Positions 1-11,546 of a stretch of DNA of 30,050 bases are shown here, piece after piece. How positions within the stretch are numbered: the first letter of the stretch is position 1; every line of letters begins with the position of its first letter. Source of the stretch: Candidatus Omnitrophota bacterium (GTDB taxonomy: Bacteria > Omnitrophota > Omnitrophia > Omnitrophales > Aquincolibacteriaceae); contig JBAZER010000027.1 of assembly GCA_041653795.1 (NCBI GenBank), positions 1-30,050 of the forward strand. Reading direction: 5' to 3'. The position numbers were made by a program, and so were the translations under genes. The notes below the pieces were generated by a model. The model was not told the DNA's origin, did not search any database, and saw only the letters and a list, made by a program, of their open reading frames with translations.

Positions 1-520
1 GAAGGGATCGTTTGGGAAAATAAAAATGCAAGAATAACAAGAGAAGCCAGGATCCTTCTGGGGACGGAATGCGGGAGCTGACGAGAACGACTATTTTTTA
101 TATTCATTTTTTCGCCCTTTCGCAACTGGATTTTTAACGATCCCTGCTCAAGACCGCAGAGAGAGGTGTCCAATATGCATCGATTTCACGGTTCTTCCGA
201 AGGCTAACATGCCTTTCCAGGCTTGTCAATGTTTGTAACATGTTCATATTAAACGACTTACGATTATTTCTGTATTTTAAAAAAGCAGTTTAAAAAGTGG
301 ATAACCCGGGTTTGGCAATTCTAAAGGGCTCAAGTTTTCCAGCAACGATTTTTCCCAAGATAAAAATCCCGCCTGAATTCTGTCGCTTTTCTGCCGCTCA
401 AACTTCCGGAAAACGATAATTAAGAATCTGTAATGCCGCGGGATAACTTGGATTGGCCTGGAATACAGCGTGGAATAATGAAAAGGGTGACGTCAAAACC
501 GATATAACTTTTTGTCTTGA

Positions 521-567
521 TTGAAAACTATAAAATATAGAAGGCCTTTTAAAAAGGGCCTTCTATA
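521..567 (-). terminator. Intrinsic terminator for minus-strand transcripts: hairpin TATAGAAGGCC/GGCCTTCTATA (11-bp stem, 536-567) followed on the minus strand by TTTTATAGTTTT
   Basis: Perfect inverted repeat read directly; T-run follows only in the minus orientation. Confidence 0.5.
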
Positions 568-578
568 CTAAACGCAGC

Positions 579-602
579 AAATGGTCGGGGTGACAGGAAT
601 TG
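579..602. repeat. 24-bp direct repeat (1 mismatch) of the 3' end of tRNA-Pro plus 3 nt of its 3' flank (AAATGGTCGGGGTGA[C/G]AGGAATTG); the other copy is 904-927, inside and next to the real tRNA
   Basis: Direct sequence comparison of 579-602 with 904-927; similarity ends immediately afterwards (no second full tRNA). Confidence 0.7.
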
Positions 603-862
603 GCTCCCCTCCGGGGCAGGCCACCCGCACTTATAAACATGACTTTTGTCATGTTTATCGTCAAGTGCTCCCTTCAATTCCTCTCGACACGAAGGGGCCT
701 GGTTCTCAAACCAGGTCCCGACGTTGACGTAGGGCGAAATCCCTTGAAAGCCCACGTCATCGCACTTGTGCATTGAGCACAAGTGTCAACCCGAAGTAAA
801 GATCGCCCTAATGCAAAAAACGCATTAGGACAGACCATTTTGTTTACTCAAAAACAAAAATA

Positions 863-893
863 AAAGGCCTTCCAAAAAGGAAGGCCTTTTATT
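863..893. terminator. Bidirectional intrinsic terminator: AAAGGCCTTCC-aaaaa-GGAAGGCCTTT with T-runs on both sides (TTTTATT on plus, TTTTATTTTTG on minus); ends the tRNA-Pro transcript
   Basis: 11-bp perfect stem, 5-nt loop, flanking U-tracts in both orientations; lies 14 nt past the tRNA 3' end. Confidence 0.6.
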
Positions 894-906
894 CTGCGTA
901 ACAAAA

Positions 907-982
907 TGGTCGGGGTGAGAGGAATTGAACCTCCGACATCTTGCTCCCAAAGCAAGCGCTCTAGCCCCTGAGCTACACCCCG
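907..982 (-). tRNA. tRNA-Pro, anticodon TGG, CCA encoded
   Basis: The reverse complement folds as a canonical cloverleaf: acceptor CGGGGTG/CACCCCG, D-arm GCTC..GAGC, anticodon stem CTTGC/GCAAG with loop TTTGGGA, T-arm GGAGG-TTCAATT-CCTCT, discriminator A, then CCA. Confidence 0.85.
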
Positions 983-1061
983 ATGTATCCTATTTATAAA
1001 AAATCAATTGAAACATCGGGGTAGTCCTGATTTCCTTAGATTTTTTTAAACAGAAATCAGG
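978..1061. promoter_or_regulatory. tRNA-Pro upstream module. Hairpin 1 is CCCCGATGT...ACATCGGGG (978-1020), overlapping the tRNA 5' end and enclosing a TATAAA -10-like box. Hairpin 2 is CCTGATTTC-cttagatttttttaaaca-GAAATCAGG (1026-1061)
   Basis: Inverted repeats read directly; the same two-hairpin layout, sharing GATGTATCC[T/A]ATTTAT, is found upstream of tRNA-Glu. Confidence 0.45.
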
Positions 1062-1122
1062 GCACACCGACGTAAATGTTATTGTTATTGTATCGACGGA
1101 ACCCGCGGATGGCAAATGCTTC

Positions 1123-4425: not shown

Positions 4426-5198
4426 AGCACTTCCTCAAGCTTGGAAAACGGCACGGAAGGTTTGACGAGAGCGAGAAGATGCAGTCCGTCGCTGTCGCGC
4501 TCGACGGATTCGATTTTCCCGATCTGGAGGCCTTTTTGAAAAATACTTCCGACGCCGGACGTGATCACATCCTCCCCGATCGCAACCTCAGCATCCAGGG
4601 CCAGATATTTCATTTGCAGCCTGTCCGTACCGATCCCGGCGATGATTCCCTGGGCACGGCTTGTCGCGGTGAGCGCACTTACGCGGGAATCCGAGTCCGG
4701 CAAAAGGATTGCGTGAGCCGTGTAGGGTTCGACTTCCAGAATCCGTCCCGCCAATCCTTCCGGCACGACTACCATCATGTCTTTTTTGAGATTGTGGCGG
4801 CTCCCCTTATCCAAAAGAATAACTTTTTTCCAGGGTGTCACATCTTCTCCAATCACCCGGGCACCGATGGTGCGCGTGGCAAGCGGCAGGCCAAAGTTAA
4901 GCAGTTTCTTGAGCCGCCGATTCTCCCGATCTATTTCACGAAAACGGCTCAGTTGACCTTCAAGCGCCTGAATGCGCGCACGGTATTCATTCTGTTTTCC
5001 GACCGCGTTCAAAAAATTCCCGGATTGATAGCGAACCATGTAAAGGCCCTCCCGAAGACTGCTTCCGAGTACAAGCGCGGGCCGGACGACGGTGGAGAAA
5101 ACAGAATGGACAGACTCGTTCAAACGGGGGTATTGAAAAAAAACAATGAGGGCTATGACGGGAACCGCAAGAAAGTAATACGAACGCCAGCGCCGCAT
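4398..5198 (-). CDS. mreC: Rod shape-determining protein MreC
   Basis: 266 aa; N-terminal TM, coiled-coil segment, C-terminal beta-domain; located between mreB and mreD. Confidence 0.85.
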   Translation of the reverse strand: MRRWRSYYFLAVPVIALIVFFQYPRLNESVHSVFSTVVRPALVLGSSLREGLYMVRYQSGNFLNAVGKQNEYRARIQALEGQLSRFREIDRENRRLKKLLNFGLPLATRTIGARVIGEDVTPWKKVILLDKGSRHNLKKDMMVVVPEGLAGRILEVEPYTAHAILLPDSDSRVSALTATSRAQGIIAGIGTDRLQMKYLALDAEVAIGEDVITSGVGSIFQKGLQIGKIESVERDSDGLHLLALVKPSVPFSKLEEVLCLVSSPQK

Positions 5199-5381
5199 GG
5201 GGGCAAAATCTCCGATAAGCGAAAAAAAAGATTCTGAAAAAACGACTGCTTCAGATACCAGGAGGTCACTTTCGGGGAGCGCTAAAACGGGGAAAATTCT
5301 CTAGCCTTTGTCCGCTATTCAAGAAAAAAACTGAAGACAAGGACGGCACTGCGAACCCATAAAATCAACAGAAACGCAGTA

Positions 5382-6434
5382 CTAGTATTCCCGGGTAGCG
5401 TTGCTGTTCACCGACAGGCGCTTCAGAAGGTGGAAATCGCTCAAATAACGACCCGTACCAAGCGCCACGGCGGTGAGAGGATCTTCCGCGATGTGAACGG
5501 GAAGCCCTGTTTCTTCGCTGATCAACTTATCAAATCCCCTTAAAAGCGATCCCCCTCCTGCCAAGATCAAACCCCGATCAATCAGATCCGCGGATAATTC
5601 CGGCGGCGTCCGCTCCAGCGCGATACGAACAGCTTCAAGGATAGCAGAAAGCGGCTCGGAGAGGGCTTCACGGATTTCTTCGCTGGTCACACTGATCGTT
5701 TTCGGCAATCCGGCGAGAACATCGCGTCCTTTAACGTCCAGTGTCGTTTCTTCTTCGAGAGGGTATGCGGAACCGATACGGATCTTGATCTCTTCGGCCG
5801 TACGCTCCCCGATCATCAAGTTATAGGCCTTTTTCAGGTGCGACGTGATCGACTCATCAAACTCATCGCCGCCGATGCGAATGCTTTTTGCAAACACGAT
5901 ACCCGAAAGAGAGATCACGGCAATCTCGGTCGTTCCGCCGCCGATATCAATGATCATGTTCCCGGCCGGCTCATGGATCGGAAGTCCGACACCAATCGCT
6001 GCGGCAATGGGTTCCTCCACAAGATAGACCGGCGTGCGAGCTCCGGCCCGTTCCGCAGAATCTTTCACGGCGCGTTTTTCGACTTCGGTGATCCCGCTCG
6101 GAACTGCGATCACGACACGCGGGCTGATACCGGTCTTGCGACGATGGACTTTGCGGATAAAATAGCGGAGCATGGCTTCGGTAATATCAAAATCTGCGAT
6201 AACACCGTCCTTCATGGGACGAATGGCGGTAATATTGCCCGGTGTGCGACCGAGCATGCGCTTGGCCTCTTCCCCGACAGCAAGGACCTGGTGGGTCGAA
6301 CGATCAATGGCTACTACAGAAGGCTCACACAACACAACGCCCTGGCCTTTGACGTAAACAAGGGTATTTGCGGTGCCAAGGTCGATACCAATATCACTCG
6401 AAAAGAATCCTAACAACTTGTCGATCAAAAACAT
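5382..6434 (-). CDS. mreB: Actin-like rod-shape protein MreB. The true start is the internal Met ([24 protein letters not shown]...); the listed ORF 5382..6644 has a 70-codon spurious N-extension that overlaps aroA
   Basis: Strong MreB N-terminal motif [30 protein letters not shown] and an actin-fold body; 350 aa from the internal start. Confidence 0.9.
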
Positions 6435-6534
6435 GGGCTCTGCCTTTTTGTATCTGTCGCGTGGGCTGGCATTTATAGAGGCCGTAGTATATCGAAAGCT
6501 TTTTTCACTGTCAAACCAAAACCATACGTACGTT

Positions 6535-7827
6535 TCAGGGCTTGAGAAGCCGGCGAAAGTGATCCATGAAAGCGGGATAAGAGGTCGCAATACATGCCGT
6601 GTTTGTAACCGTGATCGTCCCCTTCGAGGCAAGGCTTGCCACACCCATACTCATTGTCGTCCGGTGATCTCCGAAACTCTCGACGGTCGCGCCATGAAAC
6701 CCATCCACACCCCGGATCAGAGATCCGTCCGGAAGCTCTTCGATCGATGCCCCGATGGCCTTGAGATTCCGGACCATAGACTGAATACGGTCGGTTTCCT
6801 TGACACGCAGTTCCGCCGCTCCTGAAATAAGGCTTTCCCCTTCCGCGAGCGCCATCGCAACCATCAGAACCGGCAGTTCGTCGATCAGGGACGGGATCTC
6901 CCCGTGAGTGATCCCCGTACCTTTCAGTTTCGCACCGCACACGTGAATAGTCCCCATCGGCTCCGGAACCGTTTTCGTTATCTGTGTTTCAATCCTCGCA
7001 CCCATGCGCTTCAAAACTTCGAGAAATCCGGTACGTGTGGGATTCAATCCGACATCCTGAACGGTCACTTCGGACCCCGGGATCATCGCAGCACCCACGA
7101 CAAAAAAAGCGGCGGATGAAATATCGCCCGCAACGCGCGCATGCATCGGCAAAAGCATTTCTGTTTTTTCAACGATAAGATGATTGCCGATTTTCTGGAA
7201 ACGCGCTCCGGCCGCTTCAAGAAACCGCTCCGTATGGTCGCGCGACGGGATGGCTTCACGGACGATCGTTCTTCCCTCAGCGTACATTCCCGCAAAAAGA
7301 AGCGCGGACTTGACCTGCGCGCTTGAAAGTTTATTATCGAAATCAATCCCGCGAAGTTTGCCGCCGCGGATCGTGAGCGGCGCAAAATTGCCGTTCTCTC
7401 CGCCTCGAATCTGTGCGCCCATTTGTTTCAGAGGATCGGTCACACGACGCATGGGCCGGACCGAAAGAGACGGGTCCCCGGTCAACACGGCTTCGAAGCG
7501 CTGACCCGCCAGGATCCCCAAAAGAAGTCTCATGGAAGTCCCGGAATTCCCGAGATAAAGTTCCTGACCCGGAGCAGAAAGCCCTCGAAGCCCCCTTCCT
7601 ACTATCCGGACCTTGCCTGTTCCTTTTTCATGTTGGATTTCAACACCCATCCGGCGCATGGCTTCCAGGGTGTGAAGGCAATCTCCGGCCTCCAGGAAAT
7701 TCTCGTAGGAACTCTCTCCCTCGGCTAAAGCGCCGAAAAGGATCGCCCGGTGGGAAATGGATTTATCACCCGGAGGGGCATAGGTTCCGTGAAGCCGACC
7801 GGGACCTGAAAATGAAAGAGAGGGCAT
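6535..7827 (-). CDS. aroA: 3-phosphoshikimate 1-carboxyvinyltransferase (EPSP synthase)
   Basis: 430 aa; N-terminal GDKSISHR... and overall EPSPS fold signature. Confidence 0.9.
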
Positions 7828-7836
7828 GAAAAAAGG

Positions 7837-8136
7837 CTACTTCCGGCGAACCCAGATACGAGCCCGATCGAGCTCATTGAGAATCCTGTCTTTTTTGACG
7901 ATGATTTTCTCCTGCCGTTTCTTGAGGAATGCCAAGCGGGTCTTGATGCTGCCGGGATCGCTTCCCAATAATCCTGGCCAAGGCTTCCCTTCGGCCGCGA
8001 AGATCTGAGGGGTCAAAAGAACCCCCTCCAACAGCCAGGACAAGAAATAGAGCTTAGGCCCTGCGAATCTCATCGCCTTCGACGACCTGCTGCTTGGGAT
8101 TTTCTTCCACAAGGGTGGCCGCAGAAAATTTATCAT
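7837..8136 (-). CDS. Hypothetical 99-aa protein with a basic C-terminus; overlaps the 3' end of the upstream coiled-coil gene by ~80 bp; uncertain
   Basis: ATG-initiated ORF ending 10 bp before aroA; no recognisable family; would otherwise be a 226-bp gap. Confidence 0.3.
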   Translation of the reverse strand: MINFLRPPLWKKIPSSRSSKAMRFAGPKLYFLSWLLEGVLLTPQIFAAEGKPWPGLLGSDPGSIKTRLAFLKKRQEKIIVKKDRILNELDRARIWVRRK

Positions 8137-9049
8137 AGAGCTTTTCGACCAGGACTGTCGCGATCTCCTGGCCCTGTTTGAGGACCTTCAGCCTGTCCCC
8201 CATTTTGAGTCCTTCTTGAAGTCCCTGATTGACGATCACAAAATTAAATTTTCGGTTCACGGTAAGAACTCTGGCGACTGTCGCCGTCCCGGCAGTTGAG
8301 GAAGCTTCGGAAGATTGCGAGAATTCAGTTGTTGCGGCGCCGGGGGTTTCCGGTGCCGGCGGCGCCGTGATCACGGATCCTCCCTTTGTGACAGGAACCA
8401 CTTTTGCAGTTTCCGCGCTGAAAGGCACCGAGGACGCGACTGGGGGGATGGATGTTGTCATGGAACTTGCGGAGGCAACCGATCTTCCGGAGGCCATGGG
8501 TTTAAAAACGGCCTGGGGAGTTCCGGCCTCATCTGCGGCCACTGTTGAAACGGATGGCACGGAGGCCGATGAGTTTGTAAAAGATTGGGCTGCGGAAAGA
8601 GGATTTGTATTCAGGTCCGCCGGAGTCACTCCACAGGCGGCTTGAGCTTCTTTGGCCTTTTTTTCAAGCTCACCCATCTTCTTCTGAAGTTCCGCGATCA
8701 TCTCTTGATGGCTCTTGAGCTGTTTTTCGAGCACGGCTTTCTCGGAATCAATACGGATTTGTTCGGCCTGAAGTTTTTCAAGCTGGGCCTGCATAGCCTC
8801 GGCCTTGGTACGATACTCTTCGCTCTTGGCCGTGATCTGGTCCTTCTCGGCCGTGATTTGTTCCTTCTCGGCCGCGATTTGTTCTTTCTCGGACTGGACT
8901 GTGATCATTTTTTCTTTGACCTGATCGTACTTGGCCTCGATGCTGCCCCGCACAGTACGTTCCTCGACCCAGCCTTGATACAAATAGTAAGAACCGCCTG
9001 CGGCAGCAATGGAAAGAAGAAATGCTAAAATAATGCCAAGCTTTCCCAT
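8054..9049 (-). CDS. Membrane-anchored coiled-coil protein: N-terminal TM helix, heptad repeats (EKEQIAAEKEQITAEKDQITAK), a Ser/Thr/Pro/Ala-rich linker and a ~75-aa C-terminal beta-rich domain (possibly OB/NfeD-like); function unknown
   Basis: Composition and periodicity seen in the translation; no confident family assignment. Confidence 0.55.
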   Translation of the reverse strand: MGKLGIILAFLLSIAAAGGSYYLYQGWVEERTVRGSIEAKYDQVKEKMITVQSEKEQIAAEKEQITAEKDQITAKSEEYRTKAEAMQAQLEKLQAEQIRIDSEKAVLEKQLKSHQEMIAELQKKMGELEKKAKEAQAACGVTPADLNTNPLSAAQSFTNSSASVPSVSTVAADEAGTPQAVFKPMASGRSVASASSMTTSIPPVASSVPFSAETAKVVPVTKGGSVITAPPAPETPGAATTEFSQSSEASSTAGTATVARVLTVNRKFNFVIVNQGLQEGLKMGDRLKVLKQGQEIATVLVEKLYDKFSAATLVEENPKQQVVEGDEIRRA

Positions 9050-9250
9050 ACGAATCCCTCTTTAGTCTTTTGATCGTCTGACAGCAGAAAATTACGAAGA
9101 TCCCAACGCCGGACCGTCCGGGAACCCCGATCTCAGGCTGAAGAGAGCCCGGAAGTTTCTCTTCCGGACTCTCTTCATCCATCCGACTTTTACATGGACC
9201 CTATCCTCCGCTTTGTGACGACGGACAGGGCGATGAAAAACGAAAGAGGC

Positions 9251-9505
9251 CTAAGAAAGGTGCTTGCTGACGAGTTTGGTCATCTCGAACATATTGACGA
9301 CCGACTTGCCGCCGAACACAACCTTGAGCGAGGCATCCGCATTGATGTTACGCTTGTTCGCCTGATCCTGGAGCTTGTTCTTCTTGATATATTCCCAAAG
9401 CTTCTTCACGACTTCGCTGCGAGGCATCGGGCCCTTGCCGACCACTACCGCAAGTTCCTCGCTTACACCCATAGGTTTCATAAACGCTGCGTTCGCTTTC
9501 GCCAT
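9251..9505 (-). CDS. Stand-alone SWIB/MDM2-domain protein (84 aa)
   Basis: Good fit to the SWIB consensus (PRSEVVKKLWEYIKKNKLQD..NKR.I..D..L..VFG...V.MFEM.KLVSKHL); RBS AAGGAG sits 8 nt upstream. Confidence 0.8.
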   Translation of the reverse strand: MAKANAAFMKPMGVSEELAVVVGKGPMPRSEVVKKLWEYIKKNKLQDQANKRNINADASLKVVFGGKSVVNMFEMTKLVSKHLS

Positions 9506-9650
9506 AATGCTTTCTCCTTTTGGTTTGAACCGAGTTCCCGTATCCGATGTCCCGGACCCGCGCCCACGGCCTTTACTGGGTTAGTATCATACAATACAGT
9601 TTCAAAGACGACAATAAAGCTTTTCTGTCCAAGTCTTTATTTCATTTGGT

Positions 9651-9800
9651 TAATGGTGACTTGGACTGCCCTGGTTACCCATTGATTTTTTCATGAGAAC
9701 CAAGGACTGTCCAGATCTCTTGTTTCTTTTTTATAATGGCGATCTGGACTGCCCTGATTACCCGTTGATTTTTGAATGAGAATCAGGAGCTGTTTCTGTT
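9651..9800. repeat. Two tandem ~70-bp repeats (9651-9725 and 9733-9800, ~85% identical) in the nrdR-SWIB spacer. Each contains a hairpin CC(C)TGRTT-[acccRttgattttt..atgag]-AAYCAGG, with a compensatory G:C to A:T change between the copies
   Basis: Read directly: arms 9669-9676/9698-9705 and 9752-9759/9781-9788. The single mismatch in copy a becomes a G-U wobble only in a minus-strand RNA. Confidence 0.5.
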
Positions 9801-9806
9801 AAGAGA

Positions 9807-10265
9807 CTATTTCGGCTTTGCCAGCAGAAACTTCAGTTCTTTCATAAAATGGCCCACATCCTGAAAATCACGGTAGACACTTGCAAAGCGCACATATGCT
9901 ACTTGATCGATCTTCGCGAGCTTCTGCATAACGAACTCCCCGATGACCCGGGACGGGACCTCCCGGTCGTATTTTTCGCGAATTGCGGTCTCAAGATCGT
10001 CTGCAACCTTCTCCTGAGCCGCAAGCGGCACGGGACGTTTTTCGCACGCTTTGTATACCCCGGCGAGGACCTTGGAACGCTCATACGCCTCGCGGCGCTG
10101 GTCCTTTTTTACCACGAACATCGGGATCTCCTCGACCCTCTCGTAAGTGGTGAATCGCTTGCTGCAAGCCGTGCACTCGCGCCGTCTGCGAACCACCTCC
10201 CCTTCGTTGGCCGCGCGCGAATCGATCACCTTGTCAGAATCCTGTTTGCAGAAAGGACAACGCAT
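9807..10265 (-). CDS. nrdR: Transcriptional repressor NrdR (zinc ribbon + ATP-cone)
   Basis: N-terminus MRCPFCKQDSDKVIDSRAANEG...C.ACSKRFTTYERVEE is diagnostic for NrdR; 152 aa. Confidence 0.9.
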   Translation of the reverse strand: MRCPFCKQDSDKVIDSRAANEGEVVRRRRECTACSKRFTTYERVEEIPMFVVKKDQRREAYERSKVLAGVYKACEKRPVPLAAQEKVADDLETAIREKYDREVPSRVIGEFVMQKLAKIDQVAYVRFASVYRDFQDVGHFMKELKFLLAKPK

Positions 10266-10280
10266 ACGGCCTCTTTTCTC

Positions 10281-11546
10281 TTATTGAAGTTCCGGATAAA
10301 GCGGAAACCTTTGAGTCAGGGCTTCAACGCGTGAAAGGACTCTCGCGAGATTCGCTTCTTCCGCGGGAGCCTTGAGCGTTTCATCGATGAGTTCGGCAAT
10401 GAGGTCCATCTCCTTTTCTTTCATCCCGCGCGTTGTCACGGCAGGCGTTCCCAATCGGACTCCGGATCCCTTGAAAGGAGATTCTTTGTCGAACGGAATC
10501 ATGTTTTTGTTCACCGTGATCTTCACTTTATCCAGAAGCTCCTGGACCTGTTTTCCGTTAAAACCTTTCACCGTCACGTCCACGAGCATAAGATGATTAT
10601 CCGTGCCGCCGGAGACGATCCTCCAGCCGCGCGCGGCCATCGCGCCCGCAAGTGTCTTGGCATTCTTCACGATCTGGGCGCTGTATTCTTTGAACTCGGG
10701 ACTCAATGCCTCCTTCAACGCCACTGCCTTGGCCGCAATCACGTGCATCAGCGGCCCGCCCTGGATGCCCGGAAACACGGCGGAATCGATTGCTTTCGCG
10801 TATTTCTCTTTGCAAAGAATCAGGCCCGCGCGAGGACCGCGAAGCGTTTTGTGTGTTGTCGTGGTCACAACATCCGCATAGGGCACGGGACTCGGGTGAT
10901 GCCCCGTGGCCACAAGACCCGCGAAATGCGCCATATCCACCATCAGAAGCGCCCCGACCTGGTCGGCGATCTTTCGTCCCCGCGCAAAATCAATGATCCG
11001 CGGGTATGCCGACGCGCCCAAAAGAATCATTTTGGGCTTATGCTCATTGGCCAATTGCTCCAAGGCGTCATAATCGATTTGTTCGTCCTTCGGACTGACG
11101 CCATACGGGATGATCGTATAGAATTTCCCGGAGTAATTCATTTTATGACCATGCGACAAATGGCCGCCATGCGTCAAATCCATCCCCAGGATCTTGTCCC
11201 CCGGTTCCAGCAGCGCCATGAAAACGGCAATGTTGGCCGAGGTTCCGCTGTGGGGCTGGACATTCGCGTGTTCGGCCCCGAAAAGCTGCTTCGCGCGATC
11301 GATCGCAAGCTGTTCGACCACATCCACGTTTTCGCAGCCGCCGTACCAGCGCTTCGCCGGATACCCTTCGGCGTATTTATTCGTCAAGACCGAACCCATC
11401 GCCTCAAGCACGGAAAGCGATGTGAAGTTCTCGCTTGCGATCAGCTCGATATTCTCGTTCTGCCGGCGGGCTTCCGCCCGGATGGCATTATAAATATCCG
11501 GATCAGTCTTCTTAAGCTGCGTTTGATCGATGATGCTTTTTTTCAT
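10281..11546 (-). CDS. glyA: Serine hydroxymethyltransferase. The real start is the internal [13 protein letters not shown]...; the ORF as listed (to 11657) is N-extended
   Basis: SHMT motifs (LIASENFTS..., PLP-lysine region [11 protein letters not shown]); ~421 aa from the internal Met; overlaps rpiB by 35 bp. Confidence 0.9.

Follow-up and report, generated by a model that had tools for sequence, protein, structure and literature searches.

We analyzed a 30,050-nucleotide (nt) stretch of contig JBAZER010000027.1 from a Candidatus Omnitrophota bacterium (assembly GCA_041653795.1; hereafter the window), in which a gene-free islet of 325 bp lies between a tRNA-Pro gene and a displaced copy of that gene's 3' end, with a terminator-like hairpin at each end. 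The islet belongs to a family of tiny, hairpin-built insertion elements found at no fewer than six different tRNAs in Omnitrophota, a family that is previously undescribed, having no entry in Rfam 15 and no description in the literature we searched. The explanation that we favor, with confidence roughly balanced between acceptance and doubt, is that window positions 579-927 represent one copy of a family of non-autonomous miniature integrative elements, moved by an enzyme encoded elsewhere. This reading is the best supported one because of the T-loop geometry of the repeats, the polymorphic occupancy of the target sites, the occurrence of tandem arrays, and the lack of genes.

The islet is located near the left end of the window, where the long open reading frames (ORFs) are all on the minus strand and correspond to mreB-mreC-mreD-PBP2-rodA, with rodA at 1123-2205. 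After rodA, and on the same strand, stands an intact tRNA-Pro(UGG) at 907-982 (minus strand), identified by ARAGORN and by the Rfam tRNA model (67.4 bits). A repeat search showed that its last ~21 nt (907-927) form the proximal copy of a direct repeat. The distal copy, at 579-602, runs from T-loop C56 to CCA plus 3 nt and matches 904-927 at 23 of 24 positions; none of 100 shuffles gave a chance match to the 24-nt repeat, even with three mismatches allowed. An earlier reading made from the sequence alone had pointed to this duplication of the tRNA-Pro 3' end and had interpreted it as an attL/attR-type footprint, and the repeat pair supports both proposals. At lower identity the direct repeat reaches further, through both terminators (533-602 versus 856-927, 78% over 74 nt), and a third copy of the tRNA 3' end, inverted and partly degenerate, is present at 673-692. 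Contig L088 (related contigs are designated by L numbers), obtained in a metagenome scan with the islet's 11-bp hairpin, carries the orthologous locus, comprising rodA, tRNA-Pro, and islet, at 83% identity over 820 nt.

Read in the tRNA direction, that is, on the minus strand, the islet opens with an intrinsic-terminator hairpin that is part of the element's left end (857-895); it has a 15-17-bp stem with a GGCC core and 15/15 complementarity, is followed by a T-run, and is kept in L088. Hairpin H2 (CCUAAUGC / GCAUUAGG; 804-832) is restricted to the lineage of the window and L088, and in L088 it includes a U.G wobble, a combination that pairs on the tRNA-sense strand only. H3 (CACUUGUGC-N5-GCACAAGUG; 762-784) is identical in L088. 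Hairpin Hc (726-758) has a conserved foot, CGUG ... CUACG, and an upper stem that varies with compensation, and H5 (CCUGGUU-N4-AACCAGG; 694-719) reads CCUGAUC/GAUCAGG in L088, which amounts to two compensatory pairs. The core follows. Its 5' arm (673-692) forms helix P1 with 585-602, and helix P2 (627-668) is built from GCACUU/AAGUGC as its lower stem and from an upper stem of 11 bp whose tip, AUGAC-N4-GUCAU, is conserved. A junction with a short variable hairpin (603-626) has the family consensus GGGUGGCCGACC-(hairpin)-GGAGGCGC; the window, which reads GGGUGGCCUGCCCCGGAGGGGAGC here, is the most divergent copy. The displaced tRNA-Pro 3' end (579-602) comes next, and beyond it lies a second terminator-like hairpin (533-567) resembling that at 857-895. 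The hairpins that the sequence-only reading had listed (627-668, with its 11-bp stem nested in GCACTT/AAGTGC, 698-715, and 762-784) were all recovered in place, as were terminator-like hairpins at both ends, at 536-567 and 859-893. Apart from these two, the terminator motif AAGGCC...GGCCTT does not occur in the 30 kb.

A long composite hairpin spans 692 to 585 on the minus strand, and the folding energy of 515-905 departs strongly from shuffled controls (z = -10.9 and -13.1 for the minus and plus strands, respectively), unlike that of the neighboring non-coding positions 1-532 (z = +1.1), which we therefore dropped as a candidate second structured element. No conserved ORF is present. The longest ORF, of 77 amino acids (549-782; 78 codons), is not kept in the orthologous L088 locus, which led us to reject a coding hypothesis and agrees with the initial description of the islet as ORF-free. 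The arm at 673-692 is the complement of the tRNA-Pro T-loop, of its T-stem 3' strand, and of part of its acceptor, pairing at 13/13 positions with the resident tRNA and at 10/11 with the displaced copy. The displaced copy carries CCUGU, as do the tRNAs of L088 and L227, and the window tRNA and arm carry CCUCU / GAGAGG. This mismatch pattern suggests that the tRNA and the arm have undergone gene conversion or else that the islet was imported from a lineage like that of L088. The terminator on the distal side is similar to the one that the element carries, so an older tandem copy may have contributed its left end as the distal repeat, with the remainder either lost or lying beyond the left edge of the window.

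We searched for the family by combining the metagenome scan, in which other contigs shared a 63-nt block with window 619-681, with an nhmmer profile and a covariance model (CM), R1, applied to ~2 Mb of collected sequence. The nhmmer and R1 searches found 15 copies of a core module of ~115 nt (window 582-696) in 11 contigs and nothing else in the ~2 Mb; the CM search returned no further copies from the collected Omnitrophota and other non-viral loci, including rodA and tig neighborhoods. The window copy has the lowest CM score in the family (93.8 bits). Relatives of the window by RodA are Candidatus Omnitrophota metagenome-assembled genomes, and the tig homologues of the L096 lineage, found on tig-linked contigs, are likewise from Omnitrophota. 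Each of the 15 copies except one has a tRNA just upstream of it on the same strand; the exception, L094a, is 3.3 kb from L094b. Target tRNAs are tRNA-Pro (window and L088), tRNA-His (the two copies in L094, of which only L094b adjoins the tRNA), tRNA-Phe (L093, L234, and L235), tRNA-Gly (L096 and L085), tRNA-Lys (L086 and L232), and tRNA-Leu (L089, with a variant core, "B," in L086, L096, and L232). Four contigs (L086, L096, L232, and L234) hold two to three copies each, and the gene downstream of the copies is not constant.

Copies follow a common plan in the tRNA direction. The tRNA, with its 3' end restored, is usually followed by a terminator-like hairpin; in L094b, the module lies only ~20 nt from the tRNA terminator. 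Hc, with its CGUG...CUACG foot, comes next in most copies, and those at tRNA-Pro, Gly, Lys, and Leu share it. An arm that complements the particular tRNA in its T-loop and T-stem 3' strand then precedes GAAGGGAG-P2-GGGUGGCCGACC-short variable hairpin-GGAGGCGC, after which the displaced tRNA end, from T-loop C56 to the 3' end, leads into native flank. The displaced repeat begins at T-loop C56 in all 13 tRNA-adjacent copies analyzed, and the two tRNA-end copies are spaced 160-332 bp apart, with repeats that are exact over 11-22 nt and reach up to 24 nt if one mismatch is allowed. In several copies the repeat extends past the tRNA end into the flank (74 nt in the window, ~38 nt in L086, and ~90 nt in L094). 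The arm tracks the target tRNA, as illustrated by the pairs GAAUUG/CAAUUC, GAAUCG/CGAUUC, and GACUUG/CAAGUC, and its match to its own tRNA is 10/10 for tRNA-Gly and 11/12 for tRNA-Lys. A further mini-element at tRNA-Leu, "type C" (L234 7500-7700 and L096 8230-8390), joins the left part of the family, terminator and Hc, to another right core with hairpins CGGAGC-N5-GCUCCG and CCUUGMGC-N5-GCKCAAGG, and it too closes with a duplicated tRNA-Leu 3' end.

Comparison of related contigs with orthologous flanks revealed both filled and empty versions of four target sites. An element occupies tRNA-Lys in L086 and L232, with empty sites in L096, L234, and L236; tRNA-Gly in L096 and L085, with empty sites in L086, L232, and L233; tRNA-Leu in L086, L096, and L232, with an empty site in L236; and tRNA-Pro in the window and L088, with empty sites in L002 and L219. 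At filled sites, the sequence past the distal copy is orthologous to that directly following the tRNA at empty sites. In the window, the synteny break lies exactly at the displaced tRNA end, and positions 1-532 are unrelated to the sequence after the islet in L088 or after the tRNA in L002, L219, and L225. Arrays occur as well: at the tRNA-Leu of L096, two tandem elements are associated with three copies of the tRNA 3' end, and in L094 two modules 3.3 kb apart surround genes for a methyltransferase and a GT87 glycosyltransferase. We also noted that the region of L094 upstream of tRNA-His (1194-2000) is repetitive, with the peptide repeat "YPDFYFLFIDGSQDCPNFRYASINRYWD" occurring twice in one frame, and that a gene for an 83-amino acid HTH_17/AlpA-like protein (2050-2301) adjoins this stretch.

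The helices of the module show compensatory change. When P1 and P2 were scored on an 11-copy alignment of the core (A1), 96.9% of cells were paired and 13 of 26 pairs had changed on both sides; none of 500 shuffles matched the observed pairing or covariation, and slid controls were 34-44% paired. Helix 1 (P1) has changed on both sides at 5 of its 10 pairs across the family, and helices 2 and 3 (P2) are 100% paired, with 8 of 16 pairs compensatory and with four G.U and no A.C combinations. P2 occurs as two types; 6 of the 11 positions in the upper stem differ between them, all fully compensated, and L234 has a variant lower stem, GUCCU/AGGGC. In a separate alignment of Hc (A2), 8 of 14 pairs are compensatory and G.U outnumbers A.C by seven to one. 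Summed over P2 and Hc, the one-sided wobbles on the tRNA-sense strand number 11 G.U versus 1 A.C, which indicates that the folded strand is the tRNA-sense strand; since G.T is also tolerated in DNA hairpins, this bias does not separate RNA from single-stranded DNA. The family thus combines compensated helices with a strand-specific G.U bias, the generic signature of a structured RNA. In every copy, the crossover point coincides exactly with the inner end of the basal helix P1.

Sequence identity between the window and L088 also varies across the locus, amounting to 91% for the islet hairpins, 78% for the module, 97% for the tRNA, 86% for rodA, and 56% for the spacer between rodA and the tRNA. 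That the hairpins exceed both rodA and the spacer points to an islet that is under purifying selection or has recently spread and is not decaying.

Under the integration model, the element would occupy the part of the tRNA attachment site from the T-loop to the 3' end. An incoming element would supply a replacement tRNA 3' end, leaving the gene intact, and the original end would be displaced together with its native flank and joined to the core at T-loop C56; in the window, the tRNA-Pro 3' end at 907-927 would be the part supplied by the element. A T-loop crossover with identity running to the 3' end was reportedly recognized by Williams in 2002 as a standard tyrosine-integrase sublocation. 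The same arrangement is treated as standard in the Islander work (PMC4383910). Being protein-less, the element would be inserted by a site-specific recombinase encoded elsewhere, which we infer to be most likely a tyrosine integrase with a T-loop crossover, and the folded tRNA-sense single strand, whether DNA or RNA, would be one working part of the site rather than an accidental feature. Of the three identities suggested for the islet by the sequence-only reading, a small mobilizable passenger fits best, and its proposal of a structured small RNA may describe part of the same thing.

Several observations weigh against this model. Pfam annotations and ORF lists gave no recombinase gene in or beside any copy, nor did a helper emerge; no circular or excised form was seen among the contigs compared; and the module is absent from the IMG/VR, phage, and plasmid collections, with no blastn match in the latter two. 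A double-stranded attP arm leaves unexplained the hairpin covariation, the G.U strand bias, and the match of the arm to each target tRNA. Repeats that continue beyond the tRNA end, as in the window, L086, and L094, are unusual for integrase att sites and could mean target duplication, homologous exchange, or some other mechanism. Finally, near-identical cores at different tRNAs of one lineage need a retargeting route. One such route is offered by a protein-less, programmable insertion module in which the arm picks the tRNA T-loop and T-stem by base pairing in the folded strand, a version that we regard as a long shot. A host or helper enzyme would join the conserved end of the core to T-loop C56, and exchange of the arm would retarget the same core, giving near-identical cores at tRNA-Lys, Gly, Leu, and Phe.

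Two accounts that invoke the folded strand itself bear on the same evidence. The islet could be a structured RNA gene or tRNA-trailer RNA whose transcription would run the same way as that of the tRNA, by read-through or from an unrecognized promoter, and end at the second terminator, with a 3' tail that mimics the T-arm and acceptor of a tRNA, for example as a decoy or sensor for a factor that binds tRNA ends; its spread would then be secondary. The compensatory changes in P1, P2, Hc, and H5, the near restriction of G.U to the tRNA-sense strand, the terminator-like hairpins at both ends of the window islet, the conservation of its hairpins above that of rodA DNA, and the lack of a conserved ORF all suit such an RNA. 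We nonetheless find it unlikely: the islet has no sigma-70-like promoter, though Omnitrophota promoters are not known to fit that consensus; tRNA terminator and module are a mere ~20 nt apart in L094b; the variation in presence and in carrier tRNA among close relatives is odd for a housekeeping RNA; the downstream gene varies; and no Rfam family matches. An RNA would in any case be compatible with the integrative-element explanation, as a mobile element can encode one. Alternatively, P1 and the core could form a folded single-stranded DNA site that serves as the substrate of a recombinase or HUH nuclease, or the element could be of a guide type. The position of the crossover at the inner end of P1 in every copy, the dependence of the arm on the target tRNA, the tolerance of G.U or G.T on one strand only, and the cassette-like bracketing of recombinase-less cargo in L094 are consistent with this idea. 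With the genes all on one strand, the tRNA-sense strand would also be the lagging-strand template if transcription is co-directional with replication. The integron R''/R' consensus is missing, however, no gene for IntI, TnpA, TnpB, or an IS110-type protein lies near any copy, the two arms pair with each other and would thereby block a guide, and the parallels are analogies and not tests; we rate it as quite improbable. Those parallels are integron attC sites and the CTX phage attP for folded sites, and the guides in IS200/IS605 ends and IS110 bridge RNAs for the guide type.

The leading idea of the sequence-only reading was a decayed or excised island scar; on this account, the two repeats would formerly have enclosed a larger integrase island that shed its genes through deletion. 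The classic attL/attR geometry of its repeats speaks for this, as do the large islands at the same tRNA-Pro in relatives, the partial-tRNA remnants known from island arrays such as tycheposons (bioRxiv 10.1101/2020.12.28.424599), and another tiny tRNA-end duplication in L236. We give it little credence. Independent deletions would not produce the same 160-332-bp architecture 15 times at six tRNAs; the core and Hc recur and their helices covary; the islet hairpins (91%) are better conserved than coding DNA (86%), next to a neutral spacer at 56%; and the island at this tRNA is flanked by 5'-half repeats and has no sequence in common with the islet. The duplication in L236 (1075-1186) consists of 22 nt of the tRNA-Leu 5' end (GCGGTCGTGGCGGAACTGGCAG) and a hairpin-containing insert of ~90 nt; it lies directly upstream of the real tRNA-Leu and has the opposite polarity, with a 5'-end repeat.

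Relatives of the window contain varied occupants at the same tRNA-Pro as well as empty sites, which identifies the locus as a true hotspot of integration and recombination. The alignment proposed at the outset, which sought an empty site or a full island in relatives, was answered in part: the site is empty in L219 (RodA 94% identical) and L002 (84%), but none of the relatives compared has a full island between 3'-end repeats of the window type. Instead, L222, L225, and L226 (RodA 91%) have a 13.3-kb island at tRNA-Pro, which is also present in L223 (L225 2072-15500 corresponds to L222 from 11208 onward) and reaches from the intact tRNA-Pro to a 43-nt piece of the tRNA 5' half at its far end. 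It encodes three HTH_17 (excisionase-like) proteins, an SNase, a Prim-Pol/PriCT_1/AAA_25 primase-helicase, and a 413-amino acid tyrosine integrase whose gene ends 7 nt before the intact tRNA. We rejected the L225 island as a parent of the islet on two grounds, a lack of shared sequence and a different att sublocation (5'-half repeats). A motif of ~30 nt, GAGTTAAGG(C/T)(A/G)CAATAG(T/C)GGCACAAAA, is found inside the left end of this island and again beyond the intact tRNA. In L227 (RodA 92%; 4792-10727), an intact tRNA-Pro is followed by a 4.1-kb segment with a gene for a 1,095-amino acid GH43/FG-GAP protein, then by a 43-nt copy of the tRNA 3' part (9012-9054) and by genes for a serine resolvase, a 266-amino acid ORF product, and AbiEii. 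Contigs encoding P0016 carry an insertion sequence (IS)-type rve transposase, and contigs L001, L220, L221, and L224 stop within or close to this tRNA-Pro, which is what a variable site would lead one to expect. No module or islet sequence was found in L222/L225/L226, in L227, or in other occupants of this tRNA-Pro.

Among known systems, tRNA-associated islands and prophages with a T-loop crossover (Islander-type; PMC4383910) are the closest. They share with the mini-element an intact tRNA and displaced 3' fragment, repeats from the T-loop to the 3' end, restoration of the gene, filled and empty sites, and tandem arrays at one tRNA. The mini-element differs in having neither an integrase nor any other gene within only 160-332 bp, in the use of one structured core at six tRNAs, in its target-complementary arm, and in repeats that sometimes exceed the tRNA. 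Tycheposons in Prochlorococcus (bioRxiv 10.1101/2020.12.28.424599) likewise occupy tRNA hotspots, where successive integrations are split by partial tRNAs and remnants, and the L225 island has a tycheposon-like set of tyrosine recombinase, primase-helicase, and excisionase-like genes. Tycheposons carry genes, however, and that paper describes degenerate remnants, not a conserved structured mini-element; in the literature we searched, tycheposon and island papers mention partial-tRNA remnants but no such element.

Transposable elements of the miniature inverted-repeat type (MITEs), cis-mobilizable elements (CIMEs), integrative and mobilizable elements (IMEs), and satellites resemble the family in being small, non-coding, variably present, multicopy, and presumably dependent on functions in trans, with long hairpins. 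MITEs have transposon-derived terminal inverted repeats and target duplications of 2-10 bp, whereas in this family the target itself makes up one "repeat arm" and 14-24 nt or more are duplicated. The copies are small, non-coding, and numerous, as in MITEs, but have no terminal inverted repeats, the sole long inverted pair (673-692/585-602) including the displaced tRNA end, and we found no parent transposon. CIMEs are kilobase-sized deletion derivatives of a known parent, which the mini-element lacks. By analogy only, integron attC sites and CTX attP share a crossover at the inner end of the basal helix of a folded strand, a basal helix whose outer half comes from the neighboring site, and conservation of structure over sequence, and promoter-less cargo can precede the site in integron cassettes, as in L094. 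The target here is a tRNA T-loop, not attI or dif, and the basal helix is target-specific and 10-13 bp long. The attC consensus is RYYYAAC/GTTRRRY. Inspection of A1 by eye, with no dedicated attC model, gave arm ends of GGAAUYG / CRAUUCC, and the collected flanks contain no integrase; we therefore rejected an integron attC.

Searches for other known RNAs and motifs were negative. Rfam 15, applied to the window and four other copies at gathering and E-value thresholds, returned tRNA only, in line with the expectation that the islet matches no housekeeping RNA family; weak matches to Spot 42, Phe-leader, and Thr-leader were far below threshold and reflect terminator look-alikes. ARAGORN found no transfer-messenger RNA (tmRNA). 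We considered a T-box (GGGUGG...ACCG), in which UGGN does not covary with the discriminator, and a group II intron domain V (GCCGU.../...ACGGC in Hc), which has no GNRA tip; neither had an Rfam match. The stretch resembling a MOBQ origin-of-transfer nic region (TAAGTGCG) is a covarying stem and not a conserved motif, and a C/D-box guide, hammerhead, permuted or split tRNA, or tmRNA does not fit the alignment. A model of reverse transcription from a retroviral-type primer-binding site was dropped for want of a reverse transcriptase and because the arm lacks a CCA complement in most copies. Of five pattern scans of IMG/VR, one was empty and three gave only chance matches in GC-rich coding sequence or matches that nhmmer did not support; the fifth gave palindromes (L082-L084) with nothing else in common with window 1-1100 by blastn and no nhmmer match. 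Metagenome matches limited to the 11-bp hairpin (L087, L090, L091, L092, L095, and L097) proved to be unrelated palindromes. These six contigs share the 26-nt palindrome ATAAACATGAC-N4-GTCATGTTTAT, in five of them with the loop ATAT. In L091 it is found at 5324-5349, between genes for a Crp/Fnr-family regulator and a nirK-like copper nitrite reductase, a setting like that of an FNR-type operator.

Islands and prophages classically insert at tRNA genes, and short repeats beside such genes are usually written off as dead scars. In this case the "scar" is a conserved, structured, multicopy unit at six tRNAs that keeps the tRNA intact without an enzyme of its own and whose hairpins are better conserved than the neighboring essential gene. 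Integrative elements at tRNA sites are known; the novelty lies in a non-autonomous miniature form of them, and there is a modest chance that the mechanism itself is new. If the copies are indeed non-autonomous elements, integrase systems would have miniature parasites, as transposases have MITEs, and the copies would mark active recombinases in an uncultured phylum and explain assembly breaks at these tRNAs. Were the arm truly a guide, the family would add a new guide-directed type to the site-specific mobile elements and would be relevant to programmable insertion; were it an RNA, it would constitute a new tRNA-end-mimicking class. Either way, R1 provides a handle for finding the element in complete genomes.

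Two further features of the window are of separate note. Positions 1-532 comprise more than 500 nt without an ORF of more than 40 amino acids and fold in an ordinary manner. At ~9251-9505 on the minus strand (placed from L001 2701-2955), a gene for an 84-amino acid SWIB/MDM2-domain protein adjoins nrdR. The domain is rare in bacteria outside Chlamydiae, and the gene is conserved in the Omnitrophota relatives L219 and L222.

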